In this document: piece after piece, positions 2,976 to 32,511 of the stretch
Position numbering within the stretch: position 1 is the stretch's first letter
How the letters are laid out: each line of letters starts with the position of its first letter
Virus record (IMG/VR): IMGVR_UViG_2698536369_000022
Strand: one strand, 5' to 3'
DNA: 36,385 nt
From: a virus
Taxonomy: Duplodnaviria > Heunggongvirae > Uroviricota > Caudoviricetes
Made by a program: the position numbers and the translations under genes
Notes under the pieces: model-generated
Databases searched by the model: none
Seen by the model: the letters and a program-made list of their open reading frames with translations, nothing else
What the model was told of the DNA's origin: nothing

Positions 2976-4160
2976 ATGAGTGAAACTCGTTTTCATGGTG
3001 CCCGTGTTACGGAAAATACCGACCTGGTAACAGCGATTAACGATGTTGATTCCAGCGTTATCGGTATCGTGGCAACGGCGGATGATGCGGACGCGAAGTT
3101 GTTCCCGCTGAACAAGCCCACACTGCTGACCCGCGTCAATGACGTGCTGGGAAAATGCGGAACAACGGGGACGCTTTATCGTGCGCTTAAGGCCATCGCA
3201 GACCAGGTGAGCACAAAGGTGATCGTCGTTCGCGTGGCTGAACACAAAGAAGAAGACGAAAAGACGCAGGATCAACTGGTTATCGGTGGTTCTGAGGATG
3301 ACGGCAGCTATACGGGGATGTATGCGCTGCTTGTTGCAGAGCAGGATGAAAGCATCGGATACCGTCCGCGTATTCTGGCCGCGCCGGAGCTGGACACGGA
3401 GGCGGTGACAAAATCCCTGTGCGTGATTGCGGGTAAACTGCGCGCATTTGTGTATGCCTCATGTCACGGCTGTAACACGATGGCTGAAGCGATTACCTAC
3501 CGCCAGAAATTCAACGAACGTGAAGTGATGCTCTTGTGGCCGGACTTCATCGCCTACAACCCGAAAAGTGGCGAAAACGAAACGTTCCCCGCGCCTGCCT
3601 ATGCGTGCGGCCTTCGTGCGTACATTGACCATGAGCAGGGCTGGCACAAATCGCTGTCCAACGTTCCGGTTAAAAATGTGCTGGGGATGTCCAGGCATGT
3701 GTTCTGGTCGTTACAGGCCGAAGACAGCGATGCCAACAGCCTCAACAACAAAGAAATCACGACCATTATTCGTCGCAACGGGTTCCGCTTCTGGGGCAAC
3801 CGCACACCGGAAACGAACGCCTACATCTTTGAGGTGTATACCCGAACCGCACAGGTGCTGGCTGATTCAATTGCGGAAGCGCAGTTTGAAACCATCGACA
3901 GTCCACTGACGCCTGCGAACGTGAAGGATGTTATCAGTGCCATCAGGGCAAAACTGGATTCACTGGTTACTGCCGGGAAACTGATTGGCGCGGAGTGCTG
4001 GTATGACGTGGTGGATAACAGCACCACGGATTTACGTCAGGGGCGTGTGCGTATTCGCTACAAATATACGCCCGTTCCGCCACTGGAAGACATGGAGCTT
4101 TACCAGACGTTTACTGATGAATACTTTGAACCCGCATTTGCGGTGCTGGGAGGTGCCTGA
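2976..4160 (+). CDS. FI: Contractile tail sheath protein FI
   Basis: 394 aa; motifs AIADQ, KLRAF.Y, DQEQGWHK.LSNV, RRNGFRFWGNRT, YTRTAQV, YTPVPPLE match P2 FI from memory. Confidence 0.9.
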   Translation: MSETRFHGARVTENTDLVTAINDVDSSVIGIVATADDADAKLFPLNKPTLLTRVNDVLGKCGTTGTLYRALKAIADQVSTKVIVVRVAEHKEEDEKTQDQLVIGGSEDDGSYTGMYALLVAEQDESIGYRPRILAAPELDTEAVTKSLCVIAGKLRAFVYASCHGCNTMAEAITYRQKFNEREVMLLWPDFIAYNPKSGENETFPAPAYACGLRAYIDHEQGWHKSLSNVPVKNVLGMSRHVFWSLQAEDSDANSLNNKEITTIIRRNGFRFWGNRTPETNAYIFEVYTRTAQVLADSIAEAQFETIDSPLTPANVKDVISAIRAKLDSLVTAGKLIGAECWYDVVDNSTTDLRQGRVRIRYKYTPVPPLEDMELYQTFTDEYFEPAFAVLGGA

Positions 4161-8066: not shown

Positions 8067-8561
8067 ATGGCCATGATGATGATCTACGGCATGTTTGTTT
8101 TTGAGCTGCGCACGTTGCCGCATCAGCAGTTACAGCAAAACAAAAGCTGGCGGCATGTGAAAAATGAACGCGTTAACCGTTCAGCAAGCTGGCAGTATAT
8201 CGGGGCAGGCGATGATCGCATCGTTCTTTCTGGTGTGCTTTATCCTGAAATTACAGGTGGCGAAGTGTCGCTTTCGTTGCTGACCACGCAGGCATATACA
8301 GGACGCCCCTGGCCTCTGATTGATGGTGTCGGGCAGATTTACGGCATGTATGTCCTGACCGGAACGAATACGACCCGCTCCGAGTTTGATCGCTACGGTA
8401 AGGCGAAAAAGATAGAATTTTCACTGACCCTTGAACGCTGTGATGAGGATTTGCGGGAGCGCCTGCAATCCTCATCGTTCAGTGATATGCTGCCCGGCTT
8501 CAAAGATAAGGTCACATCATCCCTTAACAGCGCGGCCAGCTCCGTTAAAGGGCTGTTTTGA
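8067..8561 (+). CDS. U: Tail protein U
   Basis: MAMMMIYGMFVFELRTLPHQQ...GRPWPLIDGVGQIYGMYV..SEFDRYGKAKKIEFSLTL matches P2 gpU (MMLALGMFVF...GRAWPLLDGTGMIYGMYV..SEFDRLGKPRTIDFTLTL). Confidence 0.85.
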   Translation: MAMMMIYGMFVFELRTLPHQQLQQNKSWRHVKNERVNRSASWQYIGAGDDRIVLSGVLYPEITGGEVSLSLLTTQAYTGRPWPLIDGVGQIYGMYVLTGTNTTRSEFDRYGKAKKIEFSLTLERCDEDLRERLQSSSFSDMLPGFKDKVTSSLNSAASSVKGLF

Positions 8562-8568
8562 TTAACGC

Positions 8569-8598
8569 AAAACCGCTAATGGTCAGATTAGCGGTTTT
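8569..8598. terminator. Hairpin shared by convergent U and invertase genes
   Basis: Perfect 12-bp stem AAAACCGCTAAT / ATTAGCGGTTTT with 6-nt loop, followed by CATTTTCC on the plus strand; overlaps the invertase stop codon. Confidence 0.55.
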
Positions 8599-25814: not shown

Positions 25815-26126
25815 TTATTCAGGAAATAACGCCCTGATATTTCCGGCCATCTGACTGGTTATCTGTGCGGTTGGTACTGGCTGTGAGTCGGGGCGTTCTG
25901 TCCTGGTTTGTGTCACTGATAACGCCTCATCATCAGCCCATGCAGCCAGTCGGTAAGCCTCTGCCGGATTCATTTTCAGAAGTGCCAGCCCAGCCAGAAA
26001 AGCCACGCGTTGGCCGCTTTTGCGGGCTTCTGGTGTAAGGCTGTCCAGCCATGCGCATGCTTCGCCTTCGTTCTTGACGGCGGCGGGCTTCAGATAGAAA
26101 CTTATCCGTCTGGTTGGTGTCGTCAT
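25815..26126 (-). CDS. parR: ParR-like adaptor/repressor of a type II partition system
   Basis: From internal Met: MTTPTRRISFYLKPAAV..AWLDSLTPEARKSGQRVAFLAGLALL resembles R1 ParR N-terminus (..RRTIAFKLNPD..LDSIPQGERS..RAALTAGLAL); immediately downstream of the parM-like gene. Confidence 0.55.
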   Translation of the reverse strand: MTTPTRRISFYLKPAAVKNEGEACAWLDSLTPEARKSGQRVAFLAGLALLKMNPAEAYRLAAWADDEALSVTQTRTERPDSQPVPTAQITSQMAGNIRALFPE

Positions 26127-26130
26127 TGGT

Positions 26131-27090
26131 TTACTCCTTGTCCATTGCGTACAGCCCATTAACCAGAGCAAACTGTGGCACCCCGTCCGCGATGAAAGTC
26201 GCATTAACTCCGCAGGCTTCGCGGATAGCGGGTGCCACAATCTCCGCCCCTCCACCGACAACCATCACCCGCCCGTAACCCGAAAAAACCGCCAGCGCGC
26301 GGATCACGCGTTGTTTCAGTGTTTCTTCCTTTTCACGAATAACCGCCATCAGGCTGTTGTAATGCGCGTCATTGTGGATGTGCTGGCGCAGCCAGGCTTC
26401 ATCATGGCGATGTTCGATAATGGTATTGGCGATGTGGTGACTGGTACGCATACCGTTAGTGGCCATCACCGACAGTACGGCATCGGCCATCAGGGAAACG
26501 CCTACGTGTGGATCGCAAAACACCTGGCTGATACCTGCCAGTTGTCCCTGAACCTTTGCCACATCCAGCGTGGTTCCGCCTAAATCCACAATCAGCAGGG
26601 ATTCAAACGGACTCATGTCAGCCAGTGCCTTAAAGCCAGCCGGAATGGATTCAGGCATAACCCGTACGTTGCGGATAGTGAATGCCTCACTGTTCTGATA
26701 CTCCACCGGGCGCATAACGTTCGCTTTTTTGCGGTTGATGTTGGCCATGTCCGGCTGGGCGTTTGTGTCGAAATACTCGCTCAGTGGCAGGGTGACAACC
26801 ACATCCACCTCCTGTGGCGTGATGCCTGATTTGACCAGCGCATGATGAATGGCAATGACATTCACATCGCTGTACTGGTATTGCGTGTCGGTCGTCTGGA
26901 CAAAGCGATCGCTGACCGGATCAAAACCATAGCGCACGCCATCAAGCATGTAGTTCGCGGGCTGCATGCCACCGAACGGCGCAGACCATTCCGACTTGAA
27001 GCTGTTCGGGCTGATGGCGTTGCGGCGTTCGCCGTTCTCAGTCCATGCCAGCTTGATGTTGGTGGAGCCGTCGTCGATGTGAATTTTCAT
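26131..27090 (-). CDS. parM: ParM/StbA-family actin-like ATPase
   Basis: MKIHIDDGSTNIKLAW, ISPNSFK, YSDVNVIAIHHALVKSG, NRKKAN, VRVMPESIPAG, LLIVDLGGTTLDVAKV, VMVVGGGAE and ALVNGLY align with R1 ParM motifs as I recall them. Confidence 0.75.
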   Translation of the reverse strand: MKIHIDDGSTNIKLAWTENGERRNAISPNSFKSEWSAPFGGMQPANYMLDGVRYGFDPVSDRFVQTTDTQYQYSDVNVIAIHHALVKSGITPQEVDVVVTLPLSEYFDTNAQPDMANINRKKANVMRPVEYQNSEAFTIRNVRVMPESIPAGFKALADMSPFESLLIVDLGGTTLDVAKVQGQLAGISQVFCDPHVGVSLMADAVLSVMATNGMRTSHHIANTIIEHRHDEAWLRQHIHNDAHYNSLMAVIREKEETLKQRVIRALAVFSGYGRVMVVGGGAEIVAPAIREACGVNATFIADGVPQFALVNGLYAMDKE

Positions 27091-27166: not shown

Positions 27167-30007
27167 TCATATATCGCGGCGCGTTTTTTGCTCATTTACG
27201 GGATTTGTGAATCCCGTTTCTGTCTGTTTTTTGTTTCCACTGGTCAGGCCACCCCGCAGCAGGTCTGCTTTGCGGCGGGCGCGTTCAGTGGTTTCACTGA
27301 TTCTCTGTGCGTGCTCTGCGTCGCGGATGGCGCGCAGCATGTCAGAAAGCACGGTAACGGGTGTTTTCATGGTGTTCTGGTCTTGCTGAAGTGTGGATGC
27401 CAGGCGTGCGGCGGCTTCGGGGTCTGATGCCCCCAGCTGTTCCAGATAGCTGGCGATCGGGTTATGGCGGATCTCCGTGCTGCTTACGCCGTGGTTACGG
27501 CTCAGGCGCTGCCAGAGCTGCGTGATCCGTCTGTCCGGTCGGGTATCCGGTTTGCGTACAATTTCAAATTCCTGCGGTGCAATGATGCTGCCGTCAACGT
27601 ACAGGCTGCCGCCCCGTAACAGGTGCTGCATCTGCTGTTCACCGATATGCAGGCCGAGAGATTCGGCAGATTCCCGCCATTCTTTAGCGAGTAATTCGTG
27701 GTTATCAGGCAAAGGCCGCTGCTGTTTGCGGCTCTGTGTCCAGCTCTGCATTTCATCACTGCTGTTTTTTGCCTGTTTGTCACGAAGCGAACGCATCAGC
27801 GCCCGGCGTTCGTGCCGTTTCAGTGAGCGCATCCATTCGTTCACTTCAACGCCGTCAGGGAGCTGCGGCCACGGTGCTGGCCGTTCTTCCGGCTGTTCTG
27901 TCCCGTTGTTGTCCGTTTCCTGTACACGGGGACAGTTATTGCCACGAGTCCAAGGGGCGGCAGGGCCGCCCTGAAGGTCAAAACCATTTTCGCGGGCGCT
28001 GTCTTCCGCTTCCGGTTTGCGTCTTACCAGCTTCCAGTTATCCGGATGCGTGCATACGCGGGAAGACTCCCCAATGAGCGGCGACCAGATCCCGTAAATC
28101 TGTACGCTCTGTTCACCGTAATCGTTCAGCTCATCTGCGAGGTCGTAGGCGGTGCGAATCAGGTAGTCTTTGCGTGGAACAAGTACGCCACCCTGTTTCT
28201 CAATGTAGGTGGCAAAACATCCGGCATCAGCGGCAGCGAGTACCGCGTCCATTGCGTCATCCTTCAGCCGTTGCGGGCCTTCCGGGTTGCGTGCCATCTG
28301 GCTGGCAAGGCGGCGCAGTTCACGCCACACCTGACGGGAGGGGATACCAAAGAACTGGAACTGGCGGACCCGGTGAAGGCGCGCCCAGCCGATGGCGCGT
28401 TCCACGCTCTCGGCCATTGATTTTCCGGTTTCGTGGTCAACGCGTGGCTTGCCCGTTTTCGGGTCGATGCCATCTACGGCGCGGCTGTCCAGGTTTTTTC
28501 CGATGTAGGTCGCGATATAGCTGGTTGGTGTGCCTTTTGAGCCGTCGACATACTCCGCCTTAAAGCGCGGAGTAATATCATTGCCCAGCTCGTGGCGGTC
28601 TTCCTGAATGGCAATATCGCGGGTGATGACCACGATGCTGTCGATTTCTTCCGGATGAGCAAAGACCATCATATGCCAGTGCACGGTGCCGTCATGGTGA
28701 GGCTCCACCGTGCGGATGCCATACCAGCGAAGACCGTCGCGGCTCAGTTTTTTGCGGACCGCCGCAAAAAACGTGTTAACCAGGTAATCGCTGGAGTCGC
28801 GCATGGTGGCCCCGTTCCATTTGGGGTTCGGATGACCGTTCTCCGTTGTTGCGTGGTATTTTGACGGGCAGGTGACAGTCAGAAACACCGCTCTGTCGCC
28901 ACGGGCTTCGGCCAGAAGTTCCAGTCCTTTCATGGTGGCCATCATTTCTGCCTTACGGTGAACCGGGTTACTTACTCCCGCGTAATACACTGTCTCGAGA
29001 TCAATCGTGAACCCGTCTTCATTTTCCAGCATGAAACTTTTCAGGAAATCGCGTGTTTTCTCGCGCTGTGCGCGAAACTCGCTTAACGCGTCCTGGCTCA
29101 GATAGGGTGATGTTTTTCTGGAAACCAGACAGGCGGCGCGGCGTTGTTCTTCTCTCCACTCGCAACGTAACAGCCACAGTTTGCGTTTCCACCAGTCCGC
29201 ACAGGTCAGGCGAAGGATTGCGCCCGGCAGCAGTTCTGTGTCCGGTTCGTTCCTCCGGTCTTTGTCTGTTGTCAGTGCGTCATAATGTGGCGGCATGGCG
29301 TGCAGGTGTAACGCCATTCGGGCCAGCATCTGATACGCCTTCAGCGCCACTTCCATGGTCAGCTCACCATCGGTCGCGCCAAAGCCATCGCAGAGTGTCT
29401 CGAAGGTGCTGCTGAACATTGCCGCCGTCATGGTGGCCAGTGTCTGTATCTGGTGTTTGTTGAGCTGCGGCAGGTACAGCAAATCGTCCAGGCGTTCGCG
29501 CCCGGCAAGGGAGCGATAACCCGGTGTCAGCCAGCGTCCGTCAGTGCGATCCAGACGTTCGAATATTTTGCGCAGGGTTCCGCGTGCATAGCGTTCAGCC
29601 TGCCAGCTCTTTTTGCCTTTCTGGCGATCGGCTTCCTGTTTTTTGCGCAGGAAAGAGAGGTGGCAGCTCAGTGGTTCACGCAGATAAACAGGTAGTGCCT
29701 TTAGTGTGGCAAAGGCACGGGCTACTGGGTCTTGTTCTGTTGCCCGGCGCTTACTGATGATGCTCTGTGCCAGCTTTTCACGCTGTCCGGCTTCCTCAAG
29801 GGATGCCATGAGTTTTTTACCCATGGCGGATTGTGCGAAAAAGGCTTCTTCCTTCGCTTCCTGTTCTTCCTGTGCCCTTTTGTCTGCCTCAAGGTAGTAA
29901 CGGATGGCGCGTTGCAGGTCGGTTTCAGTTTCCTGCCTGTGCTCCGTAAATCTGGCCGGATCAATGGCTGGCCGTGGTTCATTCCAGCTCCATGCAAACT
30001 CATTCAT
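27167..30007 (-). CDS. A: Replication initiation protein A (rolling-circle endonuclease, GPA family)
   Basis: About 946 aa from the internal MNEFAWSW Met (ATGA overlap with the upstream ORF); contains HDGTVHWHMMVF HUH-like motif; position in the early operon as P2 A. Confidence 0.8.
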   Translation of the reverse strand: MNEFAWSWNEPRPAIDPARFTEHRQETETDLQRAIRYYLEADKRAQEEQEAKEEAFFAQSAMGKKLMASLEEAGQREKLAQSIISKRRATEQDPVARAFATLKALPVYLREPLSCHLSFLRKKQEADRQKGKKSWQAERYARGTLRKIFERLDRTDGRWLTPGYRSLAGRERLDDLLYLPQLNKHQIQTLATMTAAMFSSTFETLCDGFGATDGELTMEVALKAYQMLARMALHLHAMPPHYDALTTDKDRRNEPDTELLPGAILRLTCADWWKRKLWLLRCEWREEQRRAACLVSRKTSPYLSQDALSEFRAQREKTRDFLKSFMLENEDGFTIDLETVYYAGVSNPVHRKAEMMATMKGLELLAEARGDRAVFLTVTCPSKYHATTENGHPNPKWNGATMRDSSDYLVNTFFAAVRKKLSRDGLRWYGIRTVEPHHDGTVHWHMMVFAHPEEIDSIVVITRDIAIQEDRHELGNDITPRFKAEYVDGSKGTPTSYIATYIGKNLDSRAVDGIDPKTGKPRVDHETGKSMAESVERAIGWARLHRVRQFQFFGIPSRQVWRELRRLASQMARNPEGPQRLKDDAMDAVLAAADAGCFATYIEKQGGVLVPRKDYLIRTAYDLADELNDYGEQSVQIYGIWSPLIGESSRVCTHPDNWKLVRRKPEAEDSARENGFDLQGGPAAPWTRGNNCPRVQETDNNGTEQPEERPAPWPQLPDGVEVNEWMRSLKRHERRALMRSLRDKQAKNSSDEMQSWTQSRKQQRPLPDNHELLAKEWRESAESLGLHIGEQQMQHLLRGGSLYVDGSIIAPQEFEIVRKPDTRPDRRITQLWQRLSRNHGVSSTEIRHNPIASYLEQLGASDPEAAARLASTLQQDQNTMKTPVTVLSDMLRAIRDAEHAQRISETTERARRKADLLRGGLTSGNKKQTETGFTNPVNEQKTRRDI
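27195..27220. repeat. Second copy of the palindrome (ACGGGATT-TGTG-AATCCCGT) inside the 3' end of gene A
   Basis: Near-identical arms about 73 bp from the first copy; encodes TGFTNPV of the A protein C-terminus. Confidence 0.6.
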
Positions 30008-30393
30008 GGCTGGTATCCCGTCACGCGCTGCCACTCCTGCGAGAAGAGGGCAGAAAGGCGGTTAAATTCAGCGGTGTATTCACTCAGCGAGGCACACCCG
30101 CCAGCAGTGCGATGCGCCAGCATTGCCGCAAATACGGAGGCCGGGGAGTCGTAATACGCCAGCAGTGATTCTCCGTGTGGTGTCAGGCAGTGCAACGCCA
30201 GCCCGTGTGGTGTGAAGTCCACGCGGTAGCAGTCGTCTACTGTGAAATAAAGGGTGTCTGCATTCTCCGGTTTTGTGGTGCGTGCTCTGTTGTCACGACC
30301 ACGGATGTAGAGATCAAATAATCCCTGAAGAACGGGAGCCAGACGGGTGTCCTGTGTGCGCACCCATCTTGTGAAGTCATGAGCGTCAATCAT
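30004..30393 (-). CDS. Hypothetical protein (129 aa), coupled upstream of A
   Basis: Protein-like ORF whose stop overlaps the A start; no recognised motif. Confidence 0.55.
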   Translation of the reverse strand: MIDAHDFTRWVRTQDTRLAPVLQGLFDLYIRGRDNRARTTKPENADTLYFTVDDCYRVDFTPHGLALHCLTPHGESLLAYYDSPASVFAAMLAHRTAGGCASLSEYTAEFNRLSALFSQEWQRVTGYQP

Positions 30394-30465
30394 GCTGCAA
30401 TTCTCTTTACTACAGATGTGCGAAGGCCTCCCGCCGCAAGGTGCAGGAAAGGCCCGGAACAGGAA

Positions 30466-30693
30466 TTAATGGAGTTTGTTTTGCTGCTGGATGAGCCGTT
30501 GAAGTTCGCGCAGATCATCCGCCAGATAGCTGAAAACAGAGGCGGAATAGGTGTTTGATAGCGCGTGGCTGCGCTCATGCAGCATATTGATGTGCATGAT
30601 TTGCGCGACGCGTGATGCGCGGAAAAGCCTGCGGTTGATTTCAGTCTGGATGTGACGACGCGCAGCGTATGCGCGCTGTTTGCGGTTTGCCAT
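30466..30693 (-). CDS. Hypothetical small basic protein (75 aa)
   Basis: ORF with helical, Arg-rich character; no recognised family. Confidence 0.4.
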   Translation of the reverse strand: MANRKQRAYAARRHIQTEINRRLFRASRVAQIMHINMLHERSHALSNTYSASVFSYLADDLRELQRLIQQQNKLH

Positions 30694-30865
30694 GGTGTGG
30701 CCTCTGCGGTAGTAAGTTGTAAAAACTCACCATCCAGAGGTGGAAAACTCGGGGTGGTGAGACGTACAGGGTTTCCACAACCGGCTACCACAGAACCCGG
30801 CCCGACCGAAGTCGGCCCCATACGCCCCACCATAATTCGTGTGCGAAAAAGACGTGGCGATACGG

Positions 30866-30893
30866 TACGCACAAAAAAACCGCTGGCGCGGTT
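30866..30893 (-). terminator. Rho-independent terminator for minus-strand transcription
   Basis: Minus-strand reading AACCGC-GCCA-GCGGTT followed by TTTTTTTG. Confidence 0.5.
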
Positions 30894-31136
30894 GTGCGCT
30901 GTGATAGTCAGCGGGGTGGAAATCCCGGCACCCGTTTTATGAGGTGCAGCGGAAATGTAACCTGACTGATTGCGGCATGGCAAGCGGTTTTTTTGTGTGT
31001 GCATATACAGTTTTACTCCGTTTAATCCGGTTTTTTTTGCCTTCAACCGGAAAAGAAGGGTGTGTTACGCTTGAAGCACCCGCTGTTCCGTCAAAAACAA
31101 GGCGGGTGCTTTGTTCAACACACGTAAGGAAAATAA

Positions 31137-31223
31137 ATGTCTGATAGCGATAAATTTCATGTACCACGACAACCCGCACCCGCTCCGGAAAAGGGGCAGG
31201 GTTGGGATGATGAGGAGGACTAG
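31137..31223 (+). CDS. Possible 28-aa leader ORF (MSDSDKFHVPRQPAPAPEKGQGWDDEED)
   Basis: ATG preceded by AAGGAAAA; ends 6 nt before the membrane-protein gene; below the ORF-track size cutoff; weak evidence. Confidence 0.25.
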   Translation: MSDSDKFHVPRQPAPAPEKGQGWDDEED

Positions 31224-31229
31224 ATAGCA

Positions 31230-31715
31230 ATGGGTAATCAGCCATCTGAAAATAATGCTGCGCGGCGACACGAGGTGATGTATCGCCTCTGGAATAGTTA
31301 CTGGCTTGAGCACATTGTGGAGGTGTTTAATCGCCGCATGGATACGGTTATCAATGCAGTTATTCTTACGTTGGGAGCCACGGTGTTTGCTGACAGTAAT
31401 TTCAGTTGGCTGCTGGGCGGTATAGTGGCTGTACTTAGCGGCTGCAATATCGCCTGGAAATTTGGTCAGCGTGCGGAGGCGGCGAAAGCACAAGCCCATC
31501 GTTACAGTGTGCTGATTTCCGAAAGCGGCAATCTCAGCACGGAAGATGTGCTTAACAGGCTTCTGGAAACAGAGAAGCAGGACTCCCCAGTGATTGAAGG
31601 CATGGATGCAGTCGCGCGAAACAAGGCGAGTGCATCTATGGGGCTTAAACATCGCGACCAACTTTCCCTTCCTCAAAAAATCATTGCGTTATTGACCGTT
31701 GGTAATCCCGGTTAA
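31230..31715 (+). CDS. Two-TM membrane protein (161 aa), oriented opposite to the early operon
   Basis: GAGGAGG RBS 11 nt upstream; two adjacent hydrophobic helices (TVINAVILTLGATVFA; FSWLLGGIVAVLSGCNIAW) then a charged helical C-terminal region; own terminator. Confidence 0.65.
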   Translation: MGNQPSENNAARRHEVMYRLWNSYWLEHIVEVFNRRMDTVINAVILTLGATVFADSNFSWLLGGIVAVLSGCNIAWKFGQRAEAAKAQAHRYSVLISESGNLSTEDVLNRLLETEKQDSPVIEGMDAVARNKASASMGLKHRDQLSLPQKIIALLTVGNPG

Positions 31716-31742
31716 GCGCAAACGCTTAACTTTTCATTTCTT
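31711..31742 (+). terminator. Rho-independent terminator after the membrane-protein gene
   Basis: GTTAAGCG-CAAA-CGCTTAAC followed by TTTTCATTTCTT; overlaps the stop codon. Confidence 0.55.
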
Positions 31743-31754
31743 AAAGCGCGGCTT

Positions 31755-32069
31755 TCAGTCGTGCTTTTCTGTTGCACCAAGAAAAAAATCAAAAACCTTG
31801 TCGATGCGTTGAAGCAGTTCGCGCTGCATTGCTTCCGGTGTTTCGGGTTCTCCGGGTGAACCCAGCGTTGCGCAGAAGTCAGTGATTTCATGACGGAGCG
31901 TCAGGTGAATGGCAGGAGCCGTGGTTCTGGCGTGCTCCAGCTCATCCAGCAGCGCCAGCACGGCAGACGGCGAGAGCATTGCGCGAAACGCCAGTAATTT
32001 TTGATGTGTTGCCATTCGTTGCAGGTCAGTCGCCAGTTTGCGTAATTCCTGGTGGTTGATGGTTCTCAT
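31755..32069 (-). CDS. Ea22-like N-terminal-module protein (104 aa, third paralogue)
   Basis: MRTINHQELRKLATDLQ...AVLALLDELEHAR shares the INYQALRELA / LALLDELE module with the two genes at 24640-25751. Confidence 0.5.
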   Translation of the reverse strand: MRTINHQELRKLATDLQRMATHQKLLAFRAMLSPSAVLALLDELEHARTTAPAIHLTLRHEITDFCATLGSPGEPETPEAMQRELLQRIDKVFDFFLGATEKHD

Positions 32070-32311
32070 GCTCTGGCTTCCTTCAGTAGCTGGTTAAACA
32101 TGTTGGTAAGTGGATTGCCGCACCCGAATGGCATCGGGTTTATCTGGTAAGAAAAGCGACCGCCTGTTTTGCGCTCTTTTCTTACGACTGAACCGCTGCG
32201 CCAGAGTCGGCGTAACTCCGCATTAATGGCTGTGGCTGGGGTATTCAGTGCTGCGGCGATTTCTCCACCGCTACAATTCGGATGGGTAGAGATGTAGTCC
32301 AGAATGGTCAT
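32066..32311 (-). CDS. Putative winged-helix DNA-binding protein (81 aa)
   Basis: MTILDYISTHPNCSGGEIAAALNTPATAINAELRRLWRSGSVVRKER looks like a wHTH (helix, recognition helix, basic wing); start overlaps the upstream stop. Confidence 0.45.
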   Translation of the reverse strand: MTILDYISTHPNCSGGEIAAALNTPATAINAELRRLWRSGSVVRKERKTGGRFSYQINPMPFGCGNPLTNMFNQLLKEARA

Positions 32312-32511
32312 CTGCGTGACTCCTGTACCTGTCTGATAAGATTCACCTGCACCACGTTGGTGGCGCAGAAGTAAGTGTCGTCAGTGAGGTAAATGTGATG
32401 CGCGTCAGGTTGCGAACGGTGACGGTCGAGCGTTTTAATCAGCCGTTCGTCAACTTCGTATTCACGCCCTCTGGATGTGAAACGAATGACGGAAAAACGC
32501 TTAATTGCCAT
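32308..32511 (-). CDS. Hypothetical protein (67 aa)
   Basis: Small ORF in operon register (ATGA overlap with the next gene). Confidence 0.4.
   Translation of the reverse strand: MAIKRFSVIRFTSRGREYEVDERLIKTLDRHRSQPDAHHIYLTDDTYFCATNVVQVNLIRQVQESRR

Follow-up and report, generated by a model that had tools for sequence, protein, structure and literature searches.

A putative P4/P1-type antisense-RNA immunity cassette preceding an epsilon-like gene and the replication gene A in a P88-like prophage

The minus strand of positions 30694-31004 in a viral DNA sequence of 36,385 nucleotides (nt) (IMG/VR record IMGVR_UViG_2698536369_000022, Caudoviricetes; the whole of it is called the window) very probably carries an antisense-RNA immunity cassette of the P4/P1 type, which would gate the expression of an epsilon-like gene, of orf129 and of the replication gene A. 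The cassette resides in a P2-type prophage that belongs to the P88 / Xuanwuvirus group; the C/Cox switch of P2-type phages is, in textbook accounts, purely protein-based. A preliminary description, made from the letters of the window, had pointed to 30694-31136 as a structured, non-coding gap of the early region, and had suggested the presence of an internal promoter for A, of a small RNA, or of both. Two RNAs, matching the families isrK and C4, are present in this gap; their structures are conserved in relatives, and a three-way pairing that links C4 to the isrK-like RNA and to the leader of the downstream messenger RNA (mRNA) has been kept through extensive diversification. It is also of note that one of the leader sites, b2, overlaps a ribosome-binding site, that the protein encoded downstream is homologous to epsilon, and that the repressor of the prophage is homologous to C of P2.

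A scan of the whole window against Rfam yielded exactly two matches at the gathering threshold, both on the minus strand and both inside the stretch: isrK (RF01394) and C4 (RF01695). The covariance-model search that had been proposed as a check thus returned structured RNAs, and the suggestion of a small RNA is borne out by two of them, each above its Rfam gathering score. Both fold as the consensus of their family. The isrK-like RNA (-26.1 kcal/mol, z -3.6) forms three hairpins, the last of which is an intrinsic terminator at 30893-30873 that resembles t1 of P4, and the C4-like RNA (-44.1 kcal/mol, z -3.8) has a closing stem of 17 bp that encloses hairpin 1 and hairpin 2. The GGCCCG...CGGCCC hairpin listed in the preliminary description (GGCCCGACCGAAGTCGGCCC, 30799-30818) is real and corresponds to hairpin 1 of C4, where 100% of the pairing is kept in relatives, with two pairs altered on both sides. 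Pairing is likewise complete (100%) in all three C4 helices (4-6) across 47 distinct sequences, where three pairs differ on both sides.

The evidence that carries the case is comparative. Eighty IMG/VR loci that encode the 75-amino-acid protein found directly downstream in the window, three annotated records and the window itself gave 84 copies, which reduced to 49 distinct sequences, of which 47 were aligned; all 83 collected loci carry the module. Mean column identity in this alignment is 90%, and the variation is concentrated in six short blocks, namely a1, b1, b', a', a2 and b2, the rest of the module being nearly invariant. Between C4 and the isrK-like RNA (a1/b1), 100% of 704 alignment cells are paired, 10 of the 15 pairs are changed on both sides, and up to five pair types occur at one position; the covariation score is 0.691, compared with 0.122 in shuffled alignments, and none of 500 shuffles reached it. 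Between C4 and the leader (a2/b2), the corresponding figures are 97.7% of 705 cells paired, 9 of 15 pairs changed on both sides, and a score of 0.642 against 0.115, again with 0 of 500 shuffles as high. When the partner was slid by one to three columns, pairing was reduced to 29-55%. In the sampled loci, 13 b types are combined with 6 a types in 17 ways, and the cognate duplex is the most stable in every row (13 of 13 for b, against b1 as well as b2, and 6 of 6 for a, against a1 as well as a2). A structural explanation of this covariation is hard to avoid. Diversification into many orthogonal types would also be expected of an immunity or exclusion determinant.

One P88-like prophage (locus L017, 236-340) harbors a C4 with two tandem loop-2 hairpins that differ in b' (CUUUGCUCU and CUUGUGUAG). 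Its own targets match the second b' only, and the dual arrangement may represent a widened immunity range.

Downstream of C4, the leader holds both target elements (Table 1). Ranked by energy over the whole window, the a2/b2 site comes first among the non-self bipartite targets of the C4 loops (-26.0 kcal/mol), and when the full leader is folded, b' pairs in cis with b2 and the Shine-Dalgarno sequence. The 3' strand of the C4 closing stem can also be recruited into an alternative hairpin with a2 in its loop (-16.5 kcal/mol, z -3.5; none of 200 shuffles folded as well), which is 85.7% paired in relatives. This hairpin is a candidate counterpart of t4, the C4-dependent terminator of P4, and a terminator function is presumed from that likeness. 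Since no covariation was detected in it within P88-like phages, it is treated as a candidate and a structural parallel only.

Table 1. Coordinates of the features discussed, in window positions; minus-strand RNA elements are given 5' to 3'
Feature	Positions	Strand	Description
Promoter-like site	30983-30954	minus	-35 TTGCCA 30983-30978, 18-nt spacer, -10 TACATT 30959-30954
isrK / seqA-like small RNA	30947-30873	minus	RF01394, 64.7 bits (gathering 50), full model
a1 target site	30923-30916	minus	AUUUCCAC, within isrK, pairs with C4 a'
b1 target site	30907-30899	minus	CUAUCACAG, within isrK, pairs with C4 b'
C4 / CI-like antisense RNA	30837-30750	minus	RF01695, 78.8 bits (gathering 45), model 1-87 of 87
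b' specificity element	30793-30785	minus	CUGUGGUAG, loop of C4 hairpin 2
a' specificity element	30778-30772	minus	GUGGAAA, bulge after hairpin 2
Alternative hairpin	30761-30721	minus	C4 closing-stem 3' strand 30761-30748 pairs with 30739-30726; U5 30725-30721
a2 target site	30747-30740	minus	Complementary to a', in loop of alternative hairpin
b2 target site	30712-30704	minus	CUACCGCAG, overlaps Shine-Dalgarno
Shine-Dalgarno of epsilon-like gene	30705-30701	minus	AGAGG; ATG 30693-30691
Epsilon-like gene	30466-30693	minus	75 amino acids; Pfam PF25738 'Derepression', 29.9 bits (gathering 27)
orf129	30004-30393	minus	Downstream of epsilon-like gene in its transcription unit
Replication endonuclease A	27167-30034	minus	Pfam Phage_GPA, E 1.6e-129; overlaps orf129 by 31 nt
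Cargo-cassette leader	31005-31137	plus	P88-like homology stops at about 31004 or 30997

The strong minus-strand intrinsic terminator reported in the preliminary description does exist, as the hairpin AACCGCGCCAGCGGTT at 30893-30878 followed by seven T residues down to 30873. Counts of sites give it no support, the 3-kb region holding 4 terminator-like sites and shuffles 4.5, i.e. no excess; its credibility comes from the isrK match, of which it forms the invariant 3' hairpin, with a helix that is 100% paired in relatives. A stop for read-through from the early operon, as had been proposed, is not upheld as its main role; it is the terminator of the small RNA itself, the counterpart of t1 in P4. 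This terminator must be read through in order to produce C4 and the downstream mRNA, since the 35 nt that separate the two RNAs leave no room for a promoter. The suggestion of an internal promoter is favored by a promoter-like site that stops 6 nt short of the isrK-like RNA, in a position equivalent to that of the P4 promoter, both of its hexamers being unchanged in the 47 distinct modules; a tract of seven A residues (30994-30988) lies just upstream of it. It is the only such site in 29500-32500, where shuffles give an expectation of 1.7.

These elements can be arranged into a mechanism. The resident promoter would produce a 75-nt IsrK/seqA-like RNA that ends at its own terminator, and transcripts that read through it would give rise to the C4/CI-like RNA, and then to the mRNA for the epsilon-like anti-repressor, orf129 and A. 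Processing of C4 by RNase P is presumed, the only hint being that the closing stem ends, on its 3' side, in a conserved ...CCACC. C4 would expose two specificity elements, the loop b' and the bulge a', whose pairing with b2 and a2 in the mRNA leader would cover the Shine-Dalgarno sequence of the epsilon-like gene and involve the terminator-like hairpin. The sign of this regulation is presumably negative: leader pairing would silence the operon in the lysogen and also in any phage of like type that superinfects it, with translation of the epsilon-like protein blocked and orf129 and A reduced by polarity or by termination, the latter presumably at the t4-like hairpin. Pairing of b' and a' with b1 and a1 could autoregulate read-through, by analogy with t1 of P4; alternatively, by analogy with the Salmonella prophage Gifsy-1, free IsrK could titrate C4 and thus switch the operon on.

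A number of points weigh against this scheme. Support within the P88-like group is drawn from sequence comparison, and the scheme does not account for an escape of lytic, Pe-driven transcription from C4. The promoter matches the consensus at 9 of 12 positions only, and chance should give one such site in every 3 kb. The t4-like hairpin does not covary, as noted above, and the similarity of the epsilon-like protein to P4 epsilon extends over 51 residues only, in a protein that is 20 amino acids shorter. By energy in the window alone, the isrK site ranks around 13th of 48 bipartite candidates; energy-only prediction of this target was dropped as indistinguishable from chance and was not used as evidence, and the case consequently rests on covariation, being comparative and not thermodynamic. 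In addition, the aligned sequences are related, so that the shuffle control overstates significance; kinship is nevertheless unlikely to explain the pairing, because of the slid controls and of the many independent pair types that are set on a frozen background.

The simplest alternative, and a very improbable one, is that of a plain intergenic spacer that combines a terminator of the early operon with an unrelated internal promoter for A, the hairpins being incidental. The terminator and the promoter-like site do exist, and neither is more frequent than in shuffles. Such a spacer should not, however, match two curated covariance models at full length and above their gathering scores, and it is contradicted by the covariation of three segments at 15 + 15 positions in 47 sequences where the rest is frozen; moreover, in most relatives there is neither a gene boundary nor a cassette between the module and the upstream early genes. 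There is next to no chance that the stretch is instead protein-coding. A 218-amino-acid open reading frame (ORF; 30390-31046, minus strand) stays open across the whole module, and the P88 record places a 'hypothetical protein' over the RNAs on the opposite strand. This ORF has no family match and overlaps the epsilon-like gene in another frame, and the variation, which is confined to short blocks and compensates base pairs at three sites, follows no codon pattern; the coding reading was rejected on the grounds of this compensatory variation and of the missing family match. The view of the preliminary description that 30694-31136 holds no credible ORF is therefore retained, the listed ORFs, such as that of 218 amino acids, crossing RNA elements. 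In P4, a 'cI gene product' ORF is likewise annotated, although the locus has been identified as that of the CI RNA (PMC3632133); in the P4 record NC_001609 (L004), this ORF (8168-8584, 137 amino acids) overlaps the C4 match / CI RNA.

A 21-nt inverted repeat, 90% complementary (30867-30887 / 30980-31000), brackets the isrK-like RNA, which may be a coincidence; it would be transcribed as a whole only with read-through from upstream. Since retron a1/a2 repeats flank msr-msd in a similar manner, and both arms are invariant in relatives, a retron-like or inverted-repeat-bounded element was considered, and its likelihood is negligible: no reverse-transcriptase ORF lies nearby by ORF list or Pfam, the match consists largely of the A7 tract upstream of the -35 hexamer against the T7 of the terminator, an arm is altered in a single relative only (L056, G to A), where nothing compensates for it, and the repeat is absent from P4. 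The element was rejected for these reasons. It is likewise rather unlikely that the module is mainly a controller of replication or copy number acting on A, with an anti-repressor role that is secondary or absent. Several of P4, P1, P7 and N15, all of which carry related C4-type systems, are plasmid prophages. Such a controller would resemble the antisense control of plasmid replicons and the control of P4 alpha, whose gene is likewise preceded by the P4 cassette; A belongs to the same unit, uninterrupted by any terminator-like site, parM/stbB-like partition genes follow it, and the related C4-type systems are those of P4, P1, P7 and N15 (PMC3632133). C4, however, covers the ribosome-binding site of the epsilon-like gene and not that of A, and in every characterized relative the proximal gene encodes an anti-repressor or a regulator. 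Replication control is in any case compatible with an antisense-RNA immunity cassette, the two not being exclusive.

The 75-amino-acid gene that follows the leader is, on sequence comparison, a homolog of P4 epsilon, which derepresses the helper phage, and would be the first gene controlled by the module. P4 epsilon matches PF25738 at E 9e-51, and the two proteins share 33% identity (BLASTP, E 1e-8); the 75-amino-acid protein belongs to PHROG 3688, and related records designate it a 'derepression protein'. According to Liu et al., as cited in PMC8628076, P4 epsilon inactivates the C repressor of P2. With a repressor homologous to P2 C in the window, the epsilon-like protein is a plausible anti-repressor of its own phage, and by this analogy it may inactivate that phage's C repressor. 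No similarity was detected between orf129 and P4 orf151, and neither the 75- nor the 129-amino-acid protein matches the Icd, Ant or KilA families. The minus strand has no terminator-like site between 30693 and 29500 in the scan. A is 30% identical to A of P2; with 955 amino acids against 761 in P2, the gpA homolog is aligned over residues 107-815 and carries about 140 additional C-terminal residues. Directly downstream of A, ParM-like and StbB-like plasmid partition genes (25815-27090) are present, as they are in P88.

The early region, including the module and the genes that flank it, shares 91-96% identity with the corresponding part of P88-like Peduoviridae, and 30411-31004 shows the same range of identity to P88, PhiR44_2, an O104:H4 prophage and others. 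A query spanning the module and the epsilon-like gene has DNA matches in 1284 of 5426 complete E. coli genomes; a scan of a genome collection with the 75-amino-acid protein returned 3 loci and is uninformative on distribution. In the P88-like records examined neither RNA is annotated, and several place a 'hypothetical protein' or 'transcriptional regulator' coding sequence over the matched DNA. P2 itself does not have such an interruption, in agreement with the preliminary description: its early genes are contiguous, and no Rfam match was found there at E <= 0.01.

Because homology to related phages ends at about 31004, the interval 30694-31136 is made up of two unrelated things. It is flanked by the 75-amino-acid gene on the minus strand and by a 28-amino-acid ORF on the plus strand (31138-31223), so that the idea of a gap within the early region stands in that no gene lies in it, and falls in that its right border is a plus-strand cargo cassette and not the early genes. 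Positions 31005-31136 lie outside the module and are the leader of this rare cassette, which occupies a variable slot. The slot (31005-31754 in the window) directly adjoins the isrK promoter on its upstream side. Of 73 P88-like loci, 51 have it empty, with about 29 nt between the end of the upstream early gene and the module, and the remaining 22 have varied cargo of 111-1859 nt in it. The cassette of the window, with ORFs at 31138-31223 (28 amino acids) and 31230-31715 (161 amino acids) and a terminator at 31710-31731, all on the plus strand, recurs among the loci fetched only in E. coli AVS0542 (L001, 98% identity). In its leader, a hairpin at 31074-31111 is strong (z -3.58); the CCGGTT..AACCGG hairpin of the preliminary description (31028-31051) exists as well, but folds no better than shuffles (z -0.38). 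The 161-amino-acid protein has no PADLOC or NCBIfam match and no match to a defense system, a sub-threshold Pfam match to ATP-synt_I (19.9 bits, cut-off 25.1), a PHROG of unknown function, and 15 relatives that are unnamed or called 'hypothetical protein'; its hydrophobic residues, approximately 40-80, resemble two membrane helices by eye.

The RNA families and their mechanism are known already in P4, P1/P7, N15, Gifsy-1 and Shiga toxin (Stx) phages. What appears to be new is the occurrence of IsrK-C4 in P2-type phages, coupled to an epsilon homolog and gpA, which we could not find described; no published account of the module in P2-like phages was found, including the literature on P88/Xuanwuvirus and on small RNAs of CP-933T. 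A common lineage of P2-type prophages would thus carry the RNA immunity cassette of P4 together with an epsilon homolog, and P88-like phages would possess a second, RNA-based layer of immunity, which could also be their induction route. As for induction, mitomycin C induces P88, yet a convincing LexA box is missing from the window: its sole CTGT-N8-ACAG match sits inside gene A and has a GC-rich spacer, no AT-rich box was found, and LexA control was rejected on that basis. If correct, these observations would also indicate where, in evolution, the control region of the P4 left operon probably came from, or where it went, and would provide 13 x 6 orthogonal RNA-RNA specificities of natural origin. 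It has been stated that delta/ogr is the only P4-specific gene with clear homologs in P2-like phages (PMC8628076).

P88-like helper-type phages and P4-like satellites might share one homologous IsrK-C4-epsilon cassette, placed before non-homologous replication genes, in which case its hypervariable, two-part RNA 'barcode' could serve as a weapon in conflicts among phages and between helper and satellite; we hold this idea to be unlikely. In 76 P4-like loci (L087-L166), 6 b' and 3 a' types generate a combinatorial specificity, and none of the a or b types is shared with the group of the window. The polarity of the a element is inverted between the two groups, purine-rich in the C4 of the window and pyrimidine-rich in P4-like CI, so that the satellite a' resembles the a1 of P88-like phages, and two of the three satellite a' triplets equal P88-like a1 triplets. 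Because of this opposite polarity, the satellite CI RNA looks like the helper C4's own target. RNA cross-talk between helper and satellite, as read from the inverted polarity and the shared triplets in these loci, is unlikely. Were it to occur, satellite CI RNA could act as a sponge for helper C4 and thereby trigger the epsilon-like anti-repressor of the helper, helper C4 of a matching type could silence the satellite, and the tandem b' of L017 would be an expansion of the immunity range.

Comparison with characterized systems places the module among several antisense-RNA loci. In P1 and P7, as reported by Citron and Schuster in 1990, the antisense RNA is processed from the leader of the very operon that it controls; c4 is said to pair through two short elements with a1 b1 and with a2 b2, the latter at the ribosome-binding site, and differences in these elements are said to define hetero-immune types. 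The immI locus (c4-icd-ant) thus shares with the window an antisense RNA with upstream and downstream two-part targets, and differs from it in that the window has no Icd or Ant homolog by Pfam; the P1/P7 hosts are plasmid prophages with other primary repressors. N15, which is among the DNA matches, has a related secondary-immunity locus annotated as cA. Stx-converting lambdoid phages contain both Rfam families in an isrK-C4 segment that shows 74% identity with the window at 30707-30946, and a Phage_pRha regulator comes after it in place of epsilon and gpA; in locus L086, from Stx2a-converting phages, the pair (3044-3232) lies directly upstream of that regulator (2345-2968). The Stx record LC710660.1 annotates both RNAs, and most such records annotate nothing there.

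The isrK-orf45(STnc1160)-anrP locus of Gifsy-1 in Salmonella displays, as does the window, a promoter, an IsrK RNA with a leaky terminator, a C4-like segment and a gene of the anti-repressor class, and the fold of its read-through mRNA sequesters the ribosome-binding site, similarly to the window leader (PMC4825925). Gifsy-1 is, however, lambdoid, its AnrP is unrelated to epsilon, and a 45-codon ORF is reported across its C4-like segment, none being evident in the window; activation by IsrK in trans has been demonstrated in Gifsy-1, and would apply to the window by inference only.

The closest parallel is offered by P4, where IsrK corresponds to seqA and C4 / STnc1160 to CI (Barquist 2013, PMC3632133; Hershko-Shalev 2016, PMC4825925). 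The window element is no P4-like satellite, though its cassette would work like that of P4: in place of psu, delta, sid and an alpha primase in a genome devoid of virion genes, a P88-like P2-type prophage with gpA and C/Cox is found. Unlike the satellite, the host in the window is an entire phage of P2 type that has a C/Cox switch of its own. P4 reportedly has a CI-dependent terminator, t4, between cI and timm (Briani and colleagues in 2000); its t1, t4 and timm are reported by Sabbattini in 1995 and Briani and colleagues in 2000. The two operons also differ in their first ORF (epsilon-like in the window, nested kil/eta in P4), in their replication gene (gpA nicking endonuclease and alpha primase, respectively) and in the isrK-to-C4 spacing (35 nt and 107 nt). 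Both Rfam models match P4, in the CI RNA (8507-8420) and the seqA leader (8692-8615), and the two families occur in the same order and orientation in P4 and in the window. The P4 operon consists of PLE, seqA, CI RNA (seqB), seqC, kil/eta, epsilon, orf151 and alpha; in the window, the P4-type order of promoter, seqA, CI, seqC and lytic/replication genes is present on one strand, with epsilon in the operon, such that the promoter-like site parallels PLE, isrK parallels seqA, C4 parallels CI, and the a2/b2 leader parallels seqC. At the corresponding position relative to its isrK match, P4 carries TTGCCT-18-TATAGT. Read by eye, P4 presents a1-b1, a terminator, b'-a', a2 in a hairpin loop, b2 on the Shine-Dalgarno sequence and an ATG; its alternative hairpin likewise employs the 3' strand of the CI/C4 closing stem, in another sequence (GCUAUCGCC...GGCGAUAGC), and its loop also holds a2. 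C4 is separated from the ATG by 56 nt in the window and by 55 nt in P4, and in both operons an epsilon gene lies downstream and the replication gene comes last.

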